Assembly (NCBI GenBank): GCA_016783355.1
Contig: JADHWR010000001.1
Span: 6,072-70,071, forward strand
DNA: 64,000 nt
Origin: Candidatus Omnitrophota bacterium
GTDB taxonomy: Bacteria; Omnitrophota; Gorgyraeia; Gygaellales; JAHJCI01
Reading direction: 5' to 3'
Shown here piece by piece: positions 12,384 through 64,000 of this stretch. A program made the translations under genes and the position numbers. Every line of letters begins with the position of its first letter. Position 1 is the first letter of the stretch. Below the pieces are notes generated by a model, which worked only from the letters and a program-made list of their open reading frames with translations, was not told the origin of the DNA and searched no databases.

Positions 12384-12397
12384 TTTTTACCCCCTTT

Positions 12398-12492
12398 AAT
12401 GAGTCCGCCAAAGTTCGTTGGCGGACGAATTAATCCCGCTGAGTGTGCCAAAATTATAAAATAGAATTTTGGCACATATTACGAAGCGGGAT
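12398..12492 (-). promoter_or_regulatory. Two-hairpin leader element, copy 1 (rplJ-rplL spacer, ends just before the rplL SD)
   Basis: The minus-strand RNA reads AUCCCGCUUCGUAAUAUGUGCCAAAAUUCUAUUUUAUAAUUUUGGCACACUCAGCGGGAUUAAUUCGUCCGCCAACGAACUUUGGCGGACUCAUU, followed by AAAGGGGG-N7-AUG. The architecture matches 56938-57031 and 62985-63085. Confidence 0.7.
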
Positions 12493-12496
12493 AAGT

Positions 12497-15672: not shown

Positions 15673-16326
15673 TTATTCTAAGGCCTTTAAAAGCTCCTCA
15701 CCGAACTCTTTAGCTGCAAATGGACCAGCGGCAGTAATAATATTGCCATCTCTTACTACAGCTCCCCCTGTATAGTTAGCTCCTGCTTGTTGTAACTTCC
15801 CTGCTTCACTTGACCAAACAGTGGCAGATTTACCTTTAAGTAAGCCTGCCTTCGCCAGGATTACAGGAGCAATACAAATTGCGCCAACGATTTTATTTGC
15901 GGCAGAGGCATCCAATGCAATCTTATGGGCTTTGGCATTATCCCAATAAACGCTTGCACCACTGCCACCTATAAAAACCACAGCATCAAAATCAAAAGGA
16001 CTTAGCTCTTCAATCGTTAAATCAGGCTTTATTTTTGCTCCTAACATGCCCTGGGCATAATCTTGCGTAAAAGCAGCAACCTTAACTTCACAGCCTGCAT
16101 CCTCTAAAACCTGTTTGGGAATAAGTAGCTCTTCATCTCTGAAATTTTTCTGCGCAATAATCATCACTACTTTTTTCATCTCTTGGCCTCCTGCCTGCCC
16201 CGTTAGAAACTTTGTTTTTAACGGGGCCTGCGCCCAAACAACCTTTAAGAAAAAGGCACAAAAAAATCCAACCATTAAGCAAAAAACTGTTGTCCATTTC
16301 TGAAGTAGAACAAGATTCTTATTCAA
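15673..16326 (-). CDS. DJ-1/PfpI family protein (N-terminal hydrophobic extension; alternative start at MKKVVMII)
   Basis: Has the DJ-1 core VMIIAQKNFRDEEL and the nucleophile-elbow-like AICIAP. The N-terminal 50 aa contain the 29-bp TIR element. Confidence 0.8.
   Translation of the reverse strand: MNKNLVLLQKWTTVFCLMVGFFCAFFLKVVWAQAPLKTKFLTGQAGGQEMKKVVMIIAQKNFRDEELLIPKQVLEDAGCEVKVAAFTQDYAQGMLGAKIKPDLTIEELSPFDFDAVVFIGGSGASVYWDNAKAHKIALDASAANKIVGAICIAPVILAKAGLLKGKSATVWSSEAGKLQQAGANYTGGAVVRDGNIITAAGPFAAKEFGEELLKALE
16198..16226. mobile_element. 29-bp minimal TIR element (CCCCGTTAGAAAC-ttt-GTTTTTAACGGGG) flanked by cctg/cctg
   Basis: The sequence reads cctg|ccccgttagaaactttgtttttaacgggg|cctg. 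It translates as PLKTKFLTG inside the DJ-1 ORF. Confidence 0.7.
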
Positions 16327-26267: not shown

Positions 26268-26913
26268 TTAAAACATCCCAAATCATCTTAACCTGTTTTT
26301 TTGTCTCAGATTTCGTCCCACTATTATCAATAACAAAATCAGCTAAATTTAGCTTCTTTTTTAATGGCATCTGCAAATTTATGCGCTTTTTAATTTCCGA
26401 AAGGCAAAATCCCTTTTTTTTAAGGCGCAATTTTTGAATGTCTGACCTTGCCCTTACGGCAATTATCTTATCCACGATTCTCGCCAGTCCTGCTTCGATT
26501 AATAAGGGTGCATCAATTATAATAAACTTAAAATTTCGGGCCTGCTGAATCTGTATTTTAATTTCCTTAATTATTCCTGGATGCAGAATTTCGTTGAGCT
26601 TCTTTAGGGAATGCTTATTTCTGAAAGCACTCTTAGCTAACCTTTTTCGATTAATCTGTTGATTCCTGGAAAGTATCCTTTCCCCAAATGCCGCAAGAAC
26701 CCGCCTGTAAGCCCCGTTCGAAGTAAGGCGCCCAAGGCGACTGCCCCGCCAAATTCCGTGGCGGGGACTTCTAACGGGGTAAGCCTTTTTCTTGGGCTCG
26801 ATTAACTGATGCGCAATCCTATCTGCATCAATAATCTGAGCGCCTAATTGTTTAAAATAGTGCGCGCACGTCGTCTTCCCTGTGCCAAAACTGCCGGTAA
26901 TACCAACAATCAT
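26227..26913 (-). CDS. coaE: dephospho-CoA kinase, carrying a 24-codon element insertion
   Basis: [15 protein letters not shown] has the P-loop at the likely start (26913, an ATGA overlap with the glgA stop). The [11 protein letters not shown] and LHP-type motifs are present. Confidence 0.88.
26712..26779. mobile_element. 68-bp TIR element in frame inside coaE, flanked by taag/taag
   Basis: The sequence reads taag|ccccgttcgaagt aaggcgcccaaggcgactg ccccgccaaattccgtggcgggg acttctaacgggg|taag. It encodes [23 protein letters not shown]. Confidence 0.85.
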
Positions 26914-28295: not shown

Positions 28296-30964
28296 TTAAT
28301 CTCCTCCATCTCTAACCAATTCTTACCCTTCTTTATTACTACCTTTATGGGAACAGAAAGGGCTAAGGCATTCTCCATCTCATAAGATATCATCTCAATT
28401 GCCCTCTGCAATTGCCCGTTCGGTATCTCAAAAATAAGTTCATCGTGAATTTGCAGGAGGAGCTTCGCCGAAAGCGTTCTTTCCTCAATCTTCTGATATA
28501 TCTTAATCATCGCCATCTTAATTAAATCTGCTGCCGAGCCTTGGATGGATGAATTTACTGCCTGCCTTTCGGCAAATGCACGAACTGCGGCATTCTGATG
28601 ATTAATGTCAGGGAGATAGCGATGGCGACCTAAAATAGTTGTTACAAAATTGTCTTTTTTTGCCTTTTCAATCTGCCTGGCGATATAATCTTTTACTCTG
28701 GGATACCTTAAAAAATAGGCATCAATAAAGCGAGTTGCCTCCTCCCTTGAAATTCCTAATTCCCTTGCTAAACCAAAGGAAGATAGACCATAAATAATTC
28801 CAAAATTTATGCGCTTTGCTACTTCTCGCATCTGATCATTGACAATAGAATCCTCTGTGCCATAAACTAAAGAGGCAGTGGCACGATGTATGTCTTTGCC
28901 TTGCGAAAAAGCATCAATCAGCACCTTCTCGCCTGATAAATGTGCCAGAACCCTTAATTCTACCTGAGAATAATCAAAAGAGACCAAAAAATTATCCTCG
29001 CAACTCGTGATGAAAGCCTTTCGTATCTTGCGCCCTAACTCTGTCTTAATCGGTAGATTTTGCAAATTAGGATTAGAGGAGCTCAGTCTTCCCGTCTGTG
29101 TTCCTGTTTGATTGAAGAATGTATGAATGCGCAGGGTTTTTTTATCTGCCAGTTCCATTAAGGCATCGATATAAGTAGATTTTATTTTACAAAGCATACG
29201 ATATTCCAATAAAATTTTTGGTAAGGGATGCTGGCTTGCTAAGACAGCAAGAACCTCCTCATCGGTAGAGGCGCCTGTCTTTTTCTTTTTTATCACCGGC
29301 AGTTTTAATTTCTCAAAAAGAACCTGACGTAGCTGTAAGGGTGAGTTGATATTAAACGGCCCACCAGCAAGATGATAAATTTTACTGACCAGGCCTTTGC
29401 GCTTTTCTTCAATTTCAATGCCCAAGGCTTTAAGAAACTCTAAATCAAGCTTTATACCCTCTAATTCCATCTGCGCTAAAACAGGAATCAAGCGAATCTC
29501 TAAGTCGCAAAAGATGCGAAAGCTATCTTTAAGCTTTAGTTCTTTCTCTAAAACCGACTTAAGTGTTCCAATAACAACACAAACCTCAAGTGGACTTATC
29601 TTTCCTGCCCCGTTCGAAGTCCCCGCCGTAGGCGGGGCAGTCGCCCCGGGCGTCTTACTTCGAACGGGGCCTGCATCCAAAATTCTCTTCAGATAATCCC
29701 AGCACAGGCTCTCAAGACTATAATCAGACCGGGACGGATTCAAAAGATAAGCAGCAATCATCGTATCAAAACCTAACCCTTCTAGGGCGATATTATGCCG
29801 GGCTAATCGCAAAAAGATATCTTTTAGATTGTGGCCGATTTTCTTAATCTTTGGGTCTCTAAGGACAGGTTCAATGCTCTTTAAGGAGCCTTTCTCTAAT
29901 TCTAAAAAAGAATCACTCTCTGGAAGATAAACTGTCAACCCCTCCTCATTCATATAGAGAATCAACTCACCTGCCTGCCTAAACTGATCAATCCCGGCAA
30001 CCTGCCTGTTGGCACTTCGACGGAGTTTATCCCGAGCGAAGTCGAGGGACTCAGTGCTAGCACTCCGACTTCGCTCAGTGCCAACCCTGAGCTTGTCGAA
30101 GGGTTGCTCAGGTAAATCTTTAAGAAATTTTTTAAATTCTAACTCACGAAAGATTTCATAAAGATTTCTATAGTCAGGCTTCTTTATCTTTAAACTTTGC
30201 GCATCAAATTCTATATCTAAATCTGTCCTTAATTGTGCAAGATAATGACATAGTTTTATTTGCTCAATCTTTTCTTTCAAGCGAGAACGAAGCTTTTGTT
30301 CTTTTATCTGATCCAAATTCAATAAGAGATTTTCCAGAGACTTAAATTTATCCAGGAGCTTGGTGGCGGTCTTTTCTCCTATGCCAGGAACACCCGGGAT
30401 ATTATCAGCTGTATCTCCGGCAAGAGCAATAAAGTCAGCAATTCTGCCGGGTAAAAATCCGTATTGGCGCTTAACCCCTGCCACATCATAAATTATCTTT
30501 TTGTCTTTATGAGGATGCAGAACAATAACTCCCTCATCCACTAATTGCAAGATATCCTTATCAGCGCTGACAATCATTATTGTAAAATCCTTCTCTTTTG
30601 CCTTCCTGGTTAATGTCGCAATAACATCGTCTGCTTCAAAGCCCTCCTTCTCAAATATATTAATTCCAAAGGCCTTGATTATCTTTTTAATGTAAGGCAG
30701 TTGAGTCACTAAATCCGCAGGCATAGGAGGACGTTGTATCTTGTAACGCGCAAATTCTTTTTGGCGAAATGTGTGCCTTGAGACATCAAAACATACACCC
30801 ATATACTGCGGATTTATCTCTTTTAAAACCTTATTCAGAAAATTCACAAAGCCATAAATAGCATTGGTACAAAGACCGTAAGAGGTCGCAAGCCCCCTTA
30901 TGGCATAATAGGCGCGGTAACAGATGCCGTTGGCATCAATAAGTACTACTTGGGCTTTATCCAT
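28292..30964 (-). CDS. polA: DNA polymerase I, carrying two different in-frame repeat insertions
   Basis: 890 aa. Has a 5' nuclease domain (GIPGVPGIGEKTA), pol motif A (SFDYSQVELRVLAH), motif B (RR.AK..NFGIIYG) and motif C (QIHDELIFE). Confidence 0.95.
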   Translation of the reverse strand: MDKAQVVLIDANGICYRAYYAIRGLATSYGLCTNAIYGFVNFLNKVLKEINPQYMGVCFDVSRHTFRQKEFARYKIQRPPMPADLVTQLPYIKKIIKAFGINIFEKEGFEADDVIATLTRKAKEKDFTIMIVSADKDILQLVDEGVIVLHPHKDKKIIYDVAGVKRQYGFLPGRIADFIALAGDTADNIPGVPGIGEKTATKLLDKFKSLENLLLNLDQIKEQKLRSRLKEKIEQIKLCHYLAQLRTDLDIEFDAQSLKIKKPDYRNLYEIFRELEFKKFLKDLPEQPFDKLRVGTERSRSASTESLDFARDKLRRSANRQVAGIDQFRQAGELILYMNEEGLTVYLPESDSFLELEKGSLKSIEPVLRDPKIKKIGHNLKDIFLRLARHNIALEGLGFDTMIAAYLLNPSRSDYSLESLCWDYLKRILDAGPVRSKTPGATAPPTAGTSNGAGKISPLEVCVVIGTLKSVLEKELKLKDSFRIFCDLEIRLIPVLAQMELEGIKLDLEFLKALGIEIEEKRKGLVSKIYHLAGGPFNINSPLQLRQVLFEKLKLPVIKKKKTGASTDEEVLAVLASQHPLPKILLEYRMLCKIKSTYIDALMELADKKTLRIHTFFNQTGTQTGRLSSSNPNLQNLPIKTELGRKIRKAFITSCEDNFLVSFDYSQVELRVLAHLSGEKVLIDAFSQGKDIHRATASLVYGTEDSIVNDQMREVAKRINFGIIYGLSSFGLARELGISREEATRFIDAYFLRYPRVKDYIARQIEKAKKDNFVTTILGRHRYLPDINHQNAAVRAFAERQAVNSSIQGSAADLIKMAMIKIYQKIEERTLSAKLLLQIHDELIFEIPNGQLQRAIEMISYEMENALALSVPIKVVIKKGKNWLEMEEIK
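29608..29669. mobile_element. 62-bp TIR element in frame inside polA, flanked by cctg/cctg
   Basis: The sequence reads cctg|ccccgttcgaagt ccccgccgtaggcgggg cagtcgccccgggcgtctt acttcgaacgggg|cctg. It encodes PVRSKTPGATAPPTAGTSNGA. Confidence 0.85.
30011..30108. repeat. Palindromic 'FDKLRV'-type repeat inserted in frame in polA
   Basis: It contains gagcgaagtcg...agtgctagcact...cgacttcgctc and accctgagcttgtcgaaggg. The same words occur in the tandem arrays at 31007-31200. It encodes PFDKLRVGTERSRSASTESLDFARDKLRRS. Confidence 0.75.
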
Positions 30965-31006: not shown

Positions 31007-31071
31007 CCTCGACTTCGTCCCTCGACTTCGTCCCTCGACTTCGTCCCTCGACTTCGTCCCTCGACTTCGCT
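31007..31071. repeat. 13-bp tandem repeat x5 (cctcgacttcgtc)
   Basis: Four perfect copies plus one variant, read directly from the sequence. Confidence 0.9.
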
Positions 31072-31200
31072 CGGGACGACCCTGAGCTTGTCGAAGGGTC
31101 GCTCGGGACGACCCTGAGCTTGTCGAAGGGTCGCTCGGGACGACCCTGAGCTTGTTGTCGAAGGGTCGCTCAGTGTCAATCCTGAGCTTGTCGAACGGAT
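31072..31200. repeat. 32-bp tandem repeat x3 plus a partial copy (cgggacgaccctgagcttgtcgaagggtcgct); each unit has a GACCCT...AGGGTC hairpin
   Basis: Units lie at 31072, 31104 and 31136 (the third has a 3-bp tgt insertion). A partial copy follows as cctgagcttgtcgaacgg. Confidence 0.9.
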
Positions 31201-31207
31201 TGAATTA

Positions 31208-32152
31208 TTAGTTTTTAGGGGTTAATTCCGTGGCTATCTTTTCTAAAGTCTGCTTTGCAGTTACAATATCATCCTGCTCATAGAATCTGATCGCATCTTG
31301 AAACTTGGCCTGCATAATAGCGATGTGTTCTTGTTTTTGTTTTTCTTTAATCTCTTTATTTATTTTATCTATTAAGGTCAAAAATGAGTCTCTGTCTGAC
31401 GGGTCCAAAGAAATGGCTAACACCAGTGCATTTTTTGCTTCCTCTATTTTGTGCTCTTCATATAAATCATCAGCCAGTTCCTTAAGTTTTTGAATCTCTT
31501 TTAACTCTGTTAATCTGACTGCCTTTTTATGAATGGCGAGCTCACGCACTAAACTAAGCGTCTCTTCCTCTATCAACTCCTGCTGAAGAGAAGGCTGAGT
31601 CTCTGCGATGGCCTGGCGTCTGCGTTTCGCCCACTCCACCCAAGACTCACCGGGAATTCCCAATTCTATACGTTTTTTCCAATAATCAAAAGCCTTCTTT
31701 AGTTCTCTTTTTTGCTCATAAAGCATAGCTAAATTTGAATATAAATTATGATACTGGGGATTTAATTTTAGTCCAACTAAATAAATCTTCTCTGCCCTAT
31801 CAAGTAAACCCTTGGCCTCAAACATAATTCCTAAATCATTGTAAGCAATAACATAAGCAGGGTCTAACTCAATTGCCTTCTGATAACAGACTGTGGCACT
31901 ATCTAAATCACCGCGCTGCTGAAACTGCAAACCTTGACTTCGAAGAAGACGTGCCTCTTTTTGAAAAGTAGTTTGTTTCTGCGCAAAAAGTGAGGTTGGG
32001 AAACAGAATAAGTTAATTGTTATAAATAAATTAATTGCTACAAAAGAGATAATTCCCTTTGTAAACCCCGTTCGAAATTCCTCCAATCTTTGCTTAAGGC
32101 TTAATGATACATAAGTAGCCGAGGCTTTTGAATCTATCTTAAATCTATGCAT
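31208..32152 (-). CDS. TPR-repeat protein with signal-peptide-like N-terminus; current start codon lies inside a TIR element
   Basis: TPR-like repeats (A...Y.KAIELDP..., NLG..FE..G....A...Y...L.L.P). The hydrophobic segment IISFVAINLFITINLFCFPTSLFA follows. Confidence 0.75.
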   Translation of the reverse strand: MHRFKIDSKASATYVSLSLKQRLEEFRTGFTKGIISFVAINLFITINLFCFPTSLFAQKQTTFQKEARLLRSQGLQFQQRGDLDSATVCYQKAIELDPAYVIAYNDLGIMFEAKGLLDRAEKIYLVGLKLNPQYHNLYSNLAMLYEQKRELKKAFDYWKKRIELGIPGESWVEWAKRRRQAIAETQPSLQQELIEEETLSLVRELAIHKKAVRLTELKEIQKLKELADDLYEEHKIEEAKNALVLAISLDPSDRDSFLTLIDKINKEIKEKQKQEHIAIMQAKFQDAIRFYEQDDIVTAKQTLEKIATELTPKN

Positions 32153-32171
32153 ATCTAAATTTCGAACGGGG
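32066..32171. mobile_element. 106-bp TIR element (no ORF of its own) inserted in the 5' end of the TPR gene, flanked by taaa/taaa
   Basis: The sequence reads taaa|ccccgttcgaaat...80 bp...atttcgaacgggg|taaa. It supplies the ATG (32152) and the first 29 codons of the present TPR ORF. Confidence 0.85.
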
Positions 32172-32433
32172 TAAACCCCGTTCGAAATAGGAAACGCTTT
32201 AATCTATCGTTCAAATAGCGTTTACCCTTTCCAGACTTCAGGTGTTTTTCTCTACTCATTGCATCATATTTATTTAGACAGGCTTCATAATAAATAAGCT
32301 TAAAGGGGCCTCTATTCTTAGTAGAAGACACCTTTCCTGAATTATGCTCACTAAAGCGTTTCCGTAAATCATTCGTTAAGCCTGTATACCATTTTTTATC
32401 TTTCTGGCTTTGAATTACATAAACATAATGCAT
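32155..32433 (-). CDS. small GIY-YIG nuclease family protein (YhbQ/UPF0213-like)
   Basis: 92 aa. MHYVYVIQS....WYTGLTNDL.KR..EHN.GK matches the GIY...YIG-type motifs (YVY / WYTG), a conserved Arg and E..HN. The C-terminal FRTGFTPFEI is encoded by the TIR junction. Confidence 0.85.
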   Translation of the reverse strand: MHYVYVIQSQKDKKWYTGLTNDLRKRFSEHNSGKVSSTKNRGPFKLIYYEACLNKYDAMSREKHLKSGKGKRYLNDRLKRFLFRTGFTPFEI

Positions 32434-32454
32434 TGCTTGTTATTTCGAACGGGG
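32176..32454. mobile_element. 279-bp TIR element whose cargo is the complete GIY-YIG gene, flanked by taaa/taaa
   Basis: The sequence reads taaa|ccccgttcgaaat...253 bp...atttcgaacgggg|taaa. The 13-bp TIR is perfect. The GIY-YIG ATG sits 8 nt inside the right TIR. Confidence 0.85.
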
Positions 32455-39282: not shown

Positions 39283-40440
<1,158 letters not shown>

Positions 40441-43287: not shown

Positions 43288-45378
43288 CTATAGTTTTCTT
43301 GCTATCTTCTCAATTTTATAGCCTTCCATTATATCGCCTATTTTATAATCAGAAAAATTACCTATGGATATGCCGCACTCATAACCTTCAGATACCTGAG
43401 AAACCTCATCTTTAAAACGCCGAAGATTGCTAATCTTTCCGCTAAAGATAGTAGTGTTGTCTCTGATTATATCTATATTGAGCGTGCGCAAGATCTTACC
43501 CTTAGTTATAGTACACCCCGCCACAACACCACTTCGCGAGAGATTAAAAACCTGCTTCACGCGTGCCTGTCCAAAAGATACCTTTTTTATCTTTGGGCTT
43601 AACAACCCTTCTAAAGCCGCCTTTATCTCCTCGACTAATTCATAAATTATATTGTATGTCCTTACCTCCACCTGCTCTTTTTTAATTAATTCCTTTGCTC
43701 GCTCTTCTATATTTATATGAAAACCCAAGATTAGCGCATCAGAGACAGACGCCAGCATTACATCTGAAGTGTTAATTAAGCCCACTCCTTTATGGGTTAT
43801 CTTAAATTTTACCTCTTTTGTCTCTAATTTTATTAGAGAATCCCGCACCGCCTCTAATGAGCCGAATGTGTCTGCTTTAATAATAATCTTCAGCTCTTTA
43901 AGAACACCGTTTTTTATTTCCTGATGTAAATCCTCCAGCGAAAACCGATGTGGTGAAATATTCCTTTTTTCCTTTGTCTCGCGCAGCGAGATAAGTGCTC
44001 TTGCCCCTTTCTCGTCCTTGACAACAAAAAATCTCTCTCCTGCCTCAGGCACGGATTCAAAACCTAAAATTCCCACAGGCTGACTGGCAGTAGCTTCCTC
44101 AACTCTCTGGCCACAGTCATTAAATATTGCCTTTACCTTTGCTAAGTTCTTCCCCGCAACAAGTAGATCATTAAGATGTAATTTTCCATTCTGCACCAAT
44201 AAAGTTGCCAGAGGACCCCTGTTTGGGTCCTGTCTTGCCTCAATAACAACACCCCTTGCTATCTGATTATAATCTGCTTTCAATTCTAACATTTCTGCCT
44301 CTAAAAGAATCATCTCTAATAATTCATCTATGCCCTGACCGGTTTTGGCAGAAACCTCTACCGTTACGGTCTTGCCTTGCCACTCCTCAGGAACTAAACC
44401 AATATCAGCAAGTTGCTTCTTTACCCTATCTACGTTAGCCTGAACTCGATCAACTTTATTTATGGCGACAATTATAGGAACCTCAGCATCTCGGGCATGG
44501 TTAATTGCCTCAATTGTCTGAGGCATAACACCATCATCAGCAGCAACCACTAAAACAACAATATCTGTAATCTGTGCGCCCCGTGCACGCATTGCCGTAA
44601 ATGCCTCATGACCGGGTGTATCCAAAAATGCAATCTTACCCTTATCTAAATTAACCTCATATGCACCGATGTGCTGGGTTATGCCTCCATGTTCAAAATC
44701 AACGACCTTTGTCTTTCTAATCATATCCAAAAGGGAGGTCTTACCATGGTCAACATGACCCATAAATGTTACTACGGGTGGACGAACATTTAAATCCTGA
44801 GGCTGGCTTGATACCTCATGTAAGGAAAGCAGGCGTTCTTCTAAAGAGGGAGCCTGCTTGACTTTAAAGCCAAAATTCTCACAAACCTGCTCTACTTCAT
44901 CTTTTCCTAAAGATTGGTTAATGTTGGCTAGGATTTTTAACTTTAAAAGTTCCTGCATTAGCTGCGAGAGTTTAATTTGAAGCTTAACCGCTAAATTCTT
45001 AACAGAAATAGGGAAATCTAATTCTAATACCTTAGCTTGTGGCGCCTCTTCAACCAAAATTGCTTGTAGCTGCTGGGGTTGAGGCTCTAAGGTCTTTGCT
45101 TGAATTTTAGACTTGCGGGAGACTCTTCTCTTTGGTTTAGGGGCTATTTCTTTCCTCTTGATTTGCTTTTTGCCTGGCTCTTTTCGTAGGACCGCAGGCT
45201 TTTTTGCTTTCCTTGCCCCGTTTGAAATCCCTCGCCTAACGGCGGGGGCAGCTACCTTTGGTGTCTTACTTCGAACGGGGTTTGGCTTTGTAGAGGAAGC
45301 CCTTAAGCGAGTCTTTGAAGCCTTTCTCACTTTAGTTTTTAATGCTTTTGGTTTCTTAGGTTTTTTTATCTTTTTCAT
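43288..45378 (-). CDS. infB: translation initiation factor IF-2, carrying a 23-codon element insertion in the basic N-terminal region
   Basis: 696 aa. Has the G domain [21 protein letters not shown] and NKVD. Confidence 0.94.
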   Translation of the reverse strand: MKKIKKPKKPKALKTKVRKASKTRLRASSTKPNPVRSKTPKVAAPAVRRGISNGARKAKKPAVLRKEPGKKQIKRKEIAPKPKRRVSRKSKIQAKTLEPQPQQLQAILVEEAPQAKVLELDFPISVKNLAVKLQIKLSQLMQELLKLKILANINQSLGKDEVEQVCENFGFKVKQAPSLEERLLSLHEVSSQPQDLNVRPPVVTFMGHVDHGKTSLLDMIRKTKVVDFEHGGITQHIGAYEVNLDKGKIAFLDTPGHEAFTAMRARGAQITDIVVLVVAADDGVMPQTIEAINHARDAEVPIIVAINKVDRVQANVDRVKKQLADIGLVPEEWQGKTVTVEVSAKTGQGIDELLEMILLEAEMLELKADYNQIARGVVIEARQDPNRGPLATLLVQNGKLHLNDLLVAGKNLAKVKAIFNDCGQRVEEATASQPVGILGFESVPEAGERFFVVKDEKGARALISLRETKEKRNISPHRFSLEDLHQEIKNGVLKELKIIIKADTFGSLEAVRDSLIKLETKEVKFKITHKGVGLINTSDVMLASVSDALILGFHINIEERAKELIKKEQVEVRTYNIIYELVEEIKAALEGLLSPKIKKVSFGQARVKQVFNLSRSGVVAGCTITKGKILRTLNIDIIRDNTTIFSGKISNLRRFKDEVSQVSEGYECGISIGNFSDYKIGDIMEGYKIEKIARKL
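45216..45280. mobile_element. 65-bp TIR element in frame inside infB (flanks cttg / tttg)
   Basis: The sequence reads cttg|ccccgtttgaaat ccctcgcctaacggcggggg cagctacctttggtgtctt acttcgaacgggg|tttg. It encodes PVRSKTPKVAAPAVRRGISNGA. Confidence 0.8.
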
Positions 45379-46637: not shown

Positions 46638-46797
46638 GTCGCCACAAAAACGTTGACGACCCGCCAAAGTATTGTGGCGGGATTTGCACCAGAAAGTCGC
46701 CACAAAGCGTTGGCGACCCGCCAAAGTATTATGGCGGGATTTGCACCAGAAAGTCGCCACAAAGCGTTGGCGACCCGCCAAAGTATTATGGCGGGAT
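46638..46797. repeat. 57/58-bp tandem repeat x3, each unit made of two hairpins (GTCGCCA-N8-TGGCGAC and CCGCCA-N8-TGGCGG), in the rimP-nusA spacer
   Basis: Units start at 46638, 46696 and 46753. Further CCGCCAA...TTGGCGG hairpins follow to about 46850. One inverted copy lies at 63563-63607. Confidence 0.9.
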
Positions 46798-46853
46798 TGG
46801 CGCATCCGCCGGTTCTTATTGGAGGCGAATCCGCCAATTATTTTGGCGGAAGC

Positions 46854-56922: not shown

Positions 56923-56937
56923 CGCTCCTACCTCCTC

Positions 56938-57031
56938 AATGAGTCCGCCAAAGTTCGTTGGCGGACGAATTGATCCCGCCGAATGCTCTAAAATTATCAG
57001 GGAGAATTTTAGAGCAGTTTATGAGGCGGGG
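56938..57031 (-). promoter_or_regulatory. Two-hairpin leader element, copy 2 (immediately upstream of the OmpA-like gene SD)
   Basis: The plus strand reads aatgagtccgccaaagttcgttggcggacgaattgatcccgccgaatgctctaaaattatcagggagaattttagagcagtttatgaggcgggg. On the minus strand it is followed by CUCAUUGAGGAGG-N8-AUG. Confidence 0.7.
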
Positions 57032-57116
57032 TATGTACATTATTTGGGTCATTCCATAAGTCTCGTCCTTACTTATTTTAAATTATATCTATACCTTCGT
57101 CAATATCTATAAATTT

Positions 57117-62972: not shown

Positions 62973-62984
62973 TGTGACCTCCTC

Positions 62985-63085
62985 AATGAGTCCGCCAAAG
63001 TTCGTTGGCGGACGAATTGATCCCGCCGAATGCTCTAAAATTATCCCCTGCGGGGAGAATTTTAGAGCAGCTTATGAGGCGGGAT
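62985..63085 (-). promoter_or_regulatory. Two-hairpin leader element, copy 3 (between tRNA-Gly and the clpP SD)
   Basis: The minus-strand RNA reads AUCCCGCCUCAUAAGCUGCUCUAAAAUUCUCCCCGCAGGGGAUAAUUUUAGAGCAUUCGGCGGGAUCAAUUCGUCCGCCAACGAACUUUGGCGGACUCAUU, followed by GAGGAGG-N5-AUG. Confidence 0.7.
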
Positions 63086-63116
63086 ATACATTATTATAGT
63101 AATCTCTTAAAACTAA

Positions 63117-63189
63117 AGCGGGAGACGGGCTTCGAACCCGCGACATTCACGTTGGCAACGTGATGCTCTACCAACTGAGCTACTCCCGC
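63117..63189 (-). tRNA. tRNA-Gly(GCC)
   Basis: The minus-strand sequence GCGGGAGTAGCTCAGTTGGTAGAGCATCACGTTGCCAACGTGAATGTCGCGGGTTCGAAGCCCGTCTCCCGCT folds as a cloverleaf. The anticodon loop is TTGCCAA. Confidence 0.9.
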
Positions 63190-63216: not shown

Positions 63217-63302
63217 TGCCGCGGGAGAGACTCGAACTCTCAAGTCTTTGTCAGACATTAGGTCCTAAGCCTAACGCGTATACCAAATTCCGCCACCGCG
63301 GC
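63217..63302 (-). tRNA. tRNA-Leu(TAG), long variable arm
   Basis: The minus-strand sequence is GCCGCGGTGGCGGAATTTGGTATACGCGTTAGGCTTAGGACCTAATGTCTGACAAAGACTTGAGAGTTCGAGTCTCTCCCGCGGCA. The anticodon loop is CTTAGGA. Confidence 0.88.
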
Positions 63303-63371: not shown

Positions 63372-63697
63372 CATTTTTGTTAACTGTATGTCGCCATACA
63401 GATCAGACTATCCCATCCCCCTCACGCTTATCCTTAAAAAAGAAAGCGATGGGGGTCTCGATTATAGTCGTTGAACCTTCCCAGTACTTATTTGCTAAGA
63501 TAATTTCTGATTCAAATAAATGCCGGGCTTGGCTGCAGATTGTCTGCATTTAAGAATTTTTACCCCCGCCACAATACTTTGGCGGGTCGCCAATGCTTTG
63601 TGGCGACAGACATAAAGGGTATCTTAAAATACTCAGACTTTCCCGCAATTTACGAGATTCTCACTATTGATTTCTCAATAATGGCCCCTTTTTCGCG
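63372..63697 (-). ncRNA. Group I-like intron (no ORF), with a repeat module inserted at the P5 tip
   Basis: It starts after an exon U and ends in G. Hand-folded pairings are listed here:
- P1: GCCCU/GGGGC.
- P2: CAUUAUUGA-GAAA-UCAAUAGUG.
- P3: UCUCG/CGAGA, followed by J3/4 UAAAUU.
- P4: GCGGG/UCUGC, followed by J4/5 AAA.
- P5: GUCUG/CAGAC.
- The conserved AGCCAAGCC word.
- P6: CCCGG.../...CUGGG.
- P7: GACUAU/AUAGUC.
- P8: CCCCC.../...GGGGG.
- P9: UGUAUG-GCGA-CAUACA. Confidence 0.72.
63563..63607. repeat. Single inverted copy of the 46.6-kb double-hairpin repeat unit, embedded in the intron
   Basis: The plus strand reads ccccgccacaatactttggcgggtcgccaatgctttgtggcgac. This is the reverse complement of the gtcgccacaaagcgttggcgacccgccaaagtattatggcggg unit at 46696-46738. 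Confidence 0.85.
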
Positions 63698-64000
63698 AGG
63701 GCGGTGCTCTACCAGATGAGCTAGTGGCCCATTTCTATCTTAAATTTGTAATTATTGCCAAAGAACAAAATCTATATCTATTTCTGATAAGATTTTAATA
63801 ATAAATCTAAGATTTTTCTCTTTGAAATTTTTCTTTTCCAAATTCCATTCTTTCTGCTCGCATTTATATAAATTCTAGGCGAAAAATTTATCTCTTTAGC
63901 AAATCTTAATAAGTTTTCCCTTTTGGAGATTTCTATCTCAGTGCCCCTTTTATTAATTCTGCTCTTTATACCAAAACCATTTAATAAATCTTTTATCTGT

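Follow-up and report, generated by a model that had tools for sequence, protein, structure and literature searches.

Introduction

Palindromic sequences inserted in frame into genes have been known from Rickettsia for more than two decades. These Rickettsia palindromic elements (RPEs) are roughly 100–150 bp long and confined to Rickettsia and its relatives; we know of neither a signature of defined termini plus duplication nor a mobilising enzyme for them. Here, a 65-bp element that adds 23 codons to infB, the gene of IF-2, in a Candidatus Omnitrophota bacterium is analysed together with the repeat family to which it belongs. The element lies in a stretch of 64,000 nt (GenBank assembly GCA_016783355.1, contig JADHWR010000001.1, positions 6,072 to 70,071), which is hereafter called the window and to which coordinates refer where no other locus is named.

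A second described system consists of the Ssn proteins, GIY-YIG nucleases of 94 aa and one domain that act specifically on single-stranded DNA (ssDNA) (Chenal et al. 2025, PMC11893778). The ssn genes are flanked by hairpin repeats that occur in hundreds of copies, and the authors remark on the insertion-sequence-like layout. Each SRM is a self-contained hairpin of 20–50 nt, 2% of them lie inside genes in N. meningitidis, and a target duplication is not reported; the NTS repeats of Neisseria are recognition sites of SsnA (PMC11893778).

The 65 bp in infB quite probably derive, as a non-autonomous form, from a minimal GIY-YIG element and are predicted to be translated within the dispensable basic N-terminus of IF-2. 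The 86-aa GIY-YIG nuclease encoded by a form of about 279 bp is mildly favoured as the enzyme that mobilises such copies in trans. That this unit of about 279 bp represents a new class of autonomous DNA transposon, in which the nuclease would replace a DDE, HUH, serine or tyrosine enzyme and insertion would occur at YNNR with a 4-bp duplication, is proposed tentatively, at somewhat under an even chance.

A 65-bp element within the infB coding region

The host gene, the element and its parts are as follows.

43288–45378, minus strand: infB (IF-2, 696 aa), the host gene; the element makes up residues 33–55, upstream of IF2_N.
45216–45280, minus strand: the 65-bp, putatively non-autonomous element; in sense order left terminus, A, hairpin A, G, hairpin B, right terminus.
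45212–45215: first copy of the flanking 4-bp repeat, cttg on the plus strand; fits YNNR.
45216–45228, plus strand: terminal inverted repeat arm CCCCGTTTGAAAT; two differences from the other arm.
45229–45248, plus strand: inner hairpin B, CCCTCGCC-TAAC-GGCGGGGG; in the subfamily its structure is kept and its sequence is variable.
45249–45267, plus strand: inner hairpin A and junction bases; sense consensus of the subfamily AAG-N-CGCC-NNN-GGCG-N-CTG; degenerate in the infB copy.
45268–45280, plus strand: terminal inverted repeat arm ACTTCGAACGGGG; matches the window consensus perfectly.
45281–45284: second copy of the flanking 4-bp repeat, tttg; one mismatch with the first copy; fits YNNR.

The plus strand from 45212 to 45284 reads cttg-CCCCGTTTGAAAT CCCTCGCCTAACGGCGGGGG CAGCTACCTTTGGTGTCTT ACTTCGAACGGGG-tttg, letter for letter as in the first-pass annotation, which had been made from the sequence without database searches. 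Its observation that the two flanks differ at one base is borne out, whereas the single substitution that it reported between the arms has to be corrected: the 13-bp arms differ at two positions (CCCCGTTTGAAAT versus the reverse complement CCCCGTTCGAAGT), the second of which is R family-wide. The 65 bases of the element and 4 bases of flank add up to 69, that is, to the 23 in-frame codons of the original claim, and the encoded peptide is NPVRSKTPKVAAPAVRRGISNGA. The element is predicted to fold stably, at -30 kcal/mol with z = -4.1 for the sense strand and -4.5 for the plus strand. Rfam searches of the whole window and of 45150–45350 gave no match to the element at the gathering score; the best in 45150–45350 reached E = 0.02 and 19 bits against a cut-off of 70.

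The 696-aa ORF carries the Pfam domains IF2_N (residues 124–172), GTP_EFTU (203–358) and IF-2 (475–586). Its identity is also given by 8000 homologues, and exactly this protein is deposited as the IF-2 of a Candidatus Omnitrophica/Omnitrophota bin. In-frame starts are found at residue 1 (ATG, 45378), residue 17 (GTG) and residue 108 (TTG, 45057) and nowhere else. If IF-2 started at the TTG rather than at the ATG, the element would lie in an untranslated leader, and the ATG indeed overlaps the end of nusA by 23 nt and is preceded by no clear Shine-Dalgarno sequence. This alternative is nevertheless very improbable: all 107 codons upstream of the TTG are open, which would happen by chance with P ~5e-4; they are K/R-rich, as are the basic and equally long N-termini of the relatives, which start MK.K...; and the public annotation of IF-2 has a start identical to the ATG at 45378. 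Because in-frame starts are so few, the 107 codons are open and the N-termini of relatives are basic, the element is, judged from the sequence, inside the coding region of infB. It occupies a part upstream of IF2_N that varies among IF-2 homologues, in agreement with the earlier description of a variable, low-complexity host region.

Deletion in silico of the element together with one flank restores ...STKP-K-KAKKP... in IF-2, and the allele expected before insertion is ...ACAAAGCCAAAGAAAGCAAAA.... The PVR..SNG peptide is present in none of the 119 other IF-2 homologues listed; its presence in relatives that lack the family, which had been named as evidence against an insertion, was thus not seen. 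The copy would have landed in the codon run ...CCA AAG AAA..., and infB stayed intact because element and duplication together measure 69 bases and are free of stops in the PVR..SNG frame. The predicted outcome is 23 additional residues with a net charge of +5 in a basic, poorly conserved N-terminal region. Their consequence is probably small, as they lie where relatives vary freely.

The surrounding region is of low complexity and variable among IF-2 proteins, which might be taken to favour a chance inverted repeat or an assembly artefact. Both are already refuted. A second assembly from another sample (L251) is 99.85–100% identical to the window over two aligned blocks and 13 kb, and it encodes a 696-aa IF-2 with the same peptide; the only place where it seems to depart from the window is a gap of Ns in the scaffold. 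Because this independent assembly also has the element, it is not an assembly artefact. A chance origin is contradicted by the 13-mer terminus, which matches the window 12 times against 0.85 expected from shuffles, by the homology of the infB copy to two other copies in the window, and by the family's presence at no fewer than 120 other loci.

Seven copies in the window

A terminus-pair scan of the window gives exactly seven copies, namely the infB element and the following six; the ORF within the full-length copy is listed with it.

16198–16226: minimal copy (29 bp) flanked by a cctg repeat; located in a DJ-1/PfpI ORF, in its N-terminal or upstream part; coding status uncertain.
26712–26779, plus strand: 68-bp copy in coaE with a taag repeat; opposite orientation relative to the gene.
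29608–29669, minus strand: 62-bp copy in polA; termini and cctg repeat both perfect; encodes GPVRSKTPGATAPPTAGTSNGA.
32066–32171: 106-bp copy adjoining the 279-bp copy, with a shared taaa flank and without an ORF of its own; overlaps the start of an annotated TPR ORF.
32176–32454, minus strand: 279-bp full-length copy with a taaa repeat; terminus, 8 nt, ATG and an 86-codon GIY-YIG ORF.
32155–32433, minus strand: the GIY-YIG nuclease ORF, 92 aa in the window; canonical 86-aa end at 32176.
39867–39895: minimal copy of 29 bp in tgt, made up of the termini and a 3-nt loop; cttg and tttg as flanks; at a 9-residue gap against PDB 10fb.

The 4-bp direct repeats flanking these copies are perfect in five of the seven and read cttg/tttg in the other two. 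In all five short copies the length plus 4 is divisible by 3, and four of the five are read by their host genes as xPVR[SN]...[IT]SNGA. Alignments to solved structures place two of them in gaps: Tgt has its 9-residue gap against its best solved match, PDB 10fb, exactly at the element, and the alignment of CoaE is split by 24 residues exactly at its own. The alignment of PolA to solved structures is ambiguous and is not taken as empty-site evidence; there is no clean gap because the E. coli Klenow fragment has a native loop at this place.

The copies in infB, polA and coaE have a common architecture of termini, hairpin A and hairpin B. The infB copy shares 71% identity with the polA copy and 68% with the coaE copy, against 81% between those two. 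With two arm differences, one flank mismatch and imperfect inner hairpins, it is the most decayed of these three copies of 62–68 bp, so that the older insertion proposed in the first-pass annotation is plausible and the infB copy is probably old and inactive. The 106-bp copy was considered as a deletion derivative of the adjoining 279-bp copy. This idea was dropped, as the alignment score of 69.7 compares with 59.6 +/- 5.5 and a maximum of 73.8 for shuffled interiors.

A family spread over many phyla

Species-representative genomes were scanned for paired termini with an interior of 20–50 nt, and at least 120 loci were obtained; metagenomes scanned for terminus pairs 264–294 bp apart gave at least 120 stretches with 121 pairs. 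The termini CCCCGTTNGAART...AYTTCNAACGGGG are thus present at >= 120 genome loci where about 0.26 are expected by chance. Their signature is a 13-bp inverted repeat, CCCCGTT-N-GAA-R-T, which is invariant, and the interior is variable and mostly unrelated among copies. The short copies are 29–75 bp long. Deposited labels assign about 43 of the loci listed to Planctomycetota, 38 to Patescibacteria, 11 to Omnitrophota and 5 to Elusimicrobia, and the remainder to other phyla; six loci are in Omnitrophica UBA1562. Phages were considered as carriers and set aside after a search of a viral collection gave one match only.

Flanking sequences indicate a defined target. A perfect 4-bp repeat flanks 76 of the 120 short copies listed, compared with 9.3 when the flanks are paired after shuffling, and hardly any copies have a repeat of 3 or 5 bp. 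Every perfect 4-bp repeat fits YNNR, the commonest being TAAA/TTTA and TCAA/TTGA, and around the copies G is enriched at -5 and C at +5. Terminus counts, the paired scan and flank statistics therefore uphold what had been proposed from the window, namely a dispersed family whose termini are inverted and whose flanks carry a 4-bp duplication.

Nested insertions provide empty-site controls. In one locus (L252, 556–903), a 47-bp copy with a perfect CTTG duplication splits the GIY-YIG ORF of the family itself at YYEAC/LNEYD, residues that are contiguous in more than 100 homologues, and the comparison with an empty site is clean. In another (L070, 6100–6290), a 46-bp copy is nested in the family's GIY-YIG nuclease gene. 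Two identical 71-bp copies at different sites and with different flanks in one Elusimicrobia metagenome-assembled genome (JACQWV01; L053 5381–5451 and L106 5384–5454) suggest recent movement.

The copies are strongly biased toward whole codons. Such additions account for 39 of the 42 copies inside long ORFs (P ~1e-15), which are mostly read as PVR[NS]...[IT]SNG, and for 85 of 121 copies overall (P ~1e-16); 35 readings are in the PVR..SNG frame. Copies occur in both orientations within genes. Sixteen copies of the Y-shaped subfamily, drawn from several phyla, yield a consensus three-way junction with compensatory changes in 10 of 25 pairs; the sequence of hairpin A is kept across the subfamily, and hairpin B is conserved in its pairing only.

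The very stable fold of the infB element (z ~ -4) and the covariation in this three-way junction would suit an intron-like or self-processing RNA, whose removal at the RNA level would leave IF-2 without the 23 residues. A spliced element, however, needs neither a length divisible by three nor a stop-free frame, and yet the ORF copies overwhelmingly have both; the insertion of copies in either orientation and the lack of a matching Rfam family also speak against removal, which is held to be extremely improbable.

[quoted passage not shown] Neither the termini nor any GIY-YIG element that duplicates its target was found described in a literature coverage that is incomplete, so that an earlier description is possible; the family is widespread and apparently undescribed.

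A full-length form with a GIY-YIG nuclease gene

The sole ORF in the 279-bp copy encodes a GIY-YIG nuclease (Pfam PF01541, E = 3e-19, residues 1–71). Its gene and the termini of the element are fused at the sequence level. The last four codons of the nuclease in the window (F-R-T-G) before the canonical end are the terminus of the 279-bp copy, and the ORF runs six codons further, into the terminus of the adjacent 106-bp copy, because the flank, ttta in that orientation, gives no stop. More than 600 homologues of the nuclease were found; the 120 listed are 67–79% identical, carry Omnitrophota, Patescibacteria, Scalinduaceae and Dehalococcoidia labels, and usually measure 86 aa. Most of these 120 end in ...RFL[SF]LTG, which is the translation of the terminus TTCTAACGGGG, and over-called N-termini of homologues start MNPVR[DE]N, which is the translation of the other terminus. 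An alignment of 27 homologues of 86 aa has T85 invariant and G86 nearly so, and the DNA of three homologues bears out the layout. In metagenomes, the nuclease ORF is found in 93 of the 121 terminus pairs (77%), and their modal length is 279 bp.

The catalytic Tyr, Arg and Glu are invariant and the His nearly so in the 27-sequence alignment. The predicted structure (pLDDT 88.5) has the GIY-YIG fold; its closest match is UPF0213 BH0048, followed by Slx1 and then I-TevI. Among solved structures the UPF0213 protein 1zg2 is closest, at 41% identity, and Slx1 superposes with a root-mean-square deviation of 1.7 Å over 71 columns. The nuclease therefore looks functional from its residues and modelled fold. 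An NCBIfam search with the nuclease gave just a sub-threshold match to an intron endonuclease.

Full-length and short copies occur together: on 11 of the 120 contigs listed, the full-length copy is accompanied by short ones, and a homologue of the nuclease is present in 3 of the 120 genome loci listed, in one of them split by a short copy.

Proposed mobilisation of the short copies

In the proposed mechanism, the nuclease would recognise the hairpin or cruciform that the paired termini form. Cuts 4 nt apart would open a target of the roughly symmetric form G-YNNR-C, and host repair or ligation would complete the insertion. Selection in gene-dense genomes would then remove the frame-breaking copies, so that mainly whole-codon, stop-free copies would remain. 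If this is true, the unit of about 279 bp is the smallest known autonomous DNA transposon, and its 29–75-bp derivatives have colonised genes, including the essential infB, in Patescibacteria, Planctomycetota, Omnitrophota and Elusimicrobia, surviving there because they are built for in-frame read-through.

Several observations weigh against this scheme. We know of no GIY-YIG enzyme that catalyses strand transfer, and characterised members cut ssDNA or leave 3' overhangs of 1–2 nt, not 4-nt staggers. A perfect flanking repeat is found around 25 of 94 full-length copies (3.6 in shuffles), against the 76 of 120 among short copies. The flanks of full-length copies are also asymmetric, with a bias to TTTA or TTCA on the left and to TGAA or TAAA on the right. 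Simple cut-and-paste transposition does not predict this asymmetry and the small number of perfect repeats; the right flank often provides a stop codon directly after the nuclease ORF. The interiors of short copies have no significant similarity to the full-length copy, so that their parentage is read from the termini alone. Both scans required near-perfect termini, which makes their counts lower bounds that are biased to young copies. For infB itself, a search for an empty site at the DNA level found none, because the closest distinct IF-2 homologue is merely 63–67% identical.

Some of these points would be accommodated if the short copies were ordinary MITEs of an undetected conventional transposase, for example of the DDE type, and the GIY-YIG gene a passenger or a separate selfish gene between the same termini. 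DDE transposons typically combine inverted termini with a target duplication of 4 bp. The lack of a known joining activity in GIY-YIG nucleases, the scarcity of perfect repeats around full-length copies and the unrelated interiors of the short ones point the same way. On the other hand, a search of the 120 loci listed and the window for longer elements bounded by the termini (90–4000 bp) gave just two pairs, neither with matching flanks, and thus no element of 0.7–4 kb that could carry such a transposase. The GIY-YIG ORF fills more than three quarters of the terminus pairs spaced by about 280 bp, and in hundreds of homologues across phyla the C-terminus of the nuclease is the terminus itself, which is not expected of a chance passenger. 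A conventional transposase is thus unlikely, although it keeps appreciable weight.

Alternatively, the hairpins may be mainly recognition sites of a domesticated, immobile Ssn-like ssDNA nuclease with a host function such as the control of incoming DNA; in that case the copy in infB would have been retained as a site and would not be a neutral relic. The nuclease resembles Ssn in its single GIY-YIG domain, its length of about 90 aa and the multicopy repeats on either side of its gene, and the conservation of the inner hairpins with compensatory changes across phyla implies that something reads the structure. However, the SRM pattern HGTCWY..RNCYNB has no match in the window, around the 121 full-length copies or in 121 short copies, although the NTS consensus, used as a positive control, matches it; the element is therefore not filed under SRM. 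Target duplications and nested insertions are present, many copies are inside genes as compared with 2% of NTS, and no other copy of the subfamily is as decayed as the one in infB, a state that speaks against selection acting on that copy. Such a domesticated role is quite unlikely as the main explanation and would be compatible with a mobile origin.

Other repeats and RNAs in the window

The window holds further repeats. Three tandem copies of a 57-bp unit lie between nusA and rimP (46647–46817); they belong to a repeat family different from that of the infB element. A 43-nt inverted copy of this unit, 95% complementary, is found at 63565–63607 in the region of a group I intron (63384–63707, minus strand; Rfam, 88 bits against a gathering score of 50), just upstream of two tRNAs (63117–63189 and 63217–63302). 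A third dispersed family, with the hairpin GTCCGCCAAAGTTCGTTGGCGGAC, occurs at 12390–12496, 56930–57036 and 62977–63087 in copies of 69–106 nt, two of which are identical over 69 nt. Tandem repeats of 13 nt and 32 nt lie between the start of polA and the TPR ORF (31007–31198 and 30030–30103), and related sequence is present in the 5' part of polA.

Comparison with known systems

The family shares with RPEs the character of short dispersed palindromes, many of them in frame in genes that include essential ones and apparently tolerated as additional peptide. It differs from RPEs in its length of 29–75 bp, its invariant 13-bp termini, its YNNR duplication, its distribution over many phyla and its nuclease-coding form. 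The Correia elements of Neisseria and other bacterial MITEs are likewise small, non-coding and multicopy, with inverted termini and a target duplication, and occasionally lie in ORFs. However, known bacterial MITEs come from DDE-type insertion sequences and are usually lineage-restricted; in the present family a GIY-YIG gene of 279 bp is the sole coding relative, identical termini recur from phylum to phylum and most lengths amount to whole codons.

Hairpin repeats and a small nuclease gene flanked by them are also found in repetitive extragenic palindromic (REP) sequences, or bacterial interspersed mosaic elements (BIMEs), with their IS200/IS605-like REP-associated tyrosine transposases (RAYTs), and an ssDNA route is plausible for both systems. 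RAYTs are HUH tyrosine enzymes, and REPs are extragenic and have no target duplication, whereas the only ORF between the present termini is GIY-YIG and the copies lie in genes and come with a 4-bp duplication. The closest solved sequence and fold matches of the nuclease are UPF0213 (YhbQ/BH0048) and Slx1. Slx1 cuts branched DNA, which fits the recognition of a hairpin or cruciform; neither UPF0213 nor Slx1, however, is known with terminal repeats or mobility.

For annotation, the comparison implies that PVR..SNG inserts in proteins from bins of candidate phyla and of the Planctomycetes–Verrucomicrobia–Chlamydiae (PVC) group would be mobile DNA and not lineage-specific features. The closest parallel to the layout of the full-length form is Ssn, with a single-domain GIY-YIG nuclease of about 90 residues (86 aa here) and a gene bracketed by repeats that are multicopy elsewhere. 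In the present family, by contrast, the ends pair with each other, one end encodes the C-terminus of the nuclease, the target is duplicated over 4 bp and many copies are genic and in frame. The 2025 work on Ssn did not settle whether mobility is a property of small GIY-YIG nucleases that are flanked by hairpins; to this question the family contributes exact termini, a 4-bp YNNR duplication, nested insertions as empty-site controls and, in the one-gene 279-bp form, a candidate autonomous element.

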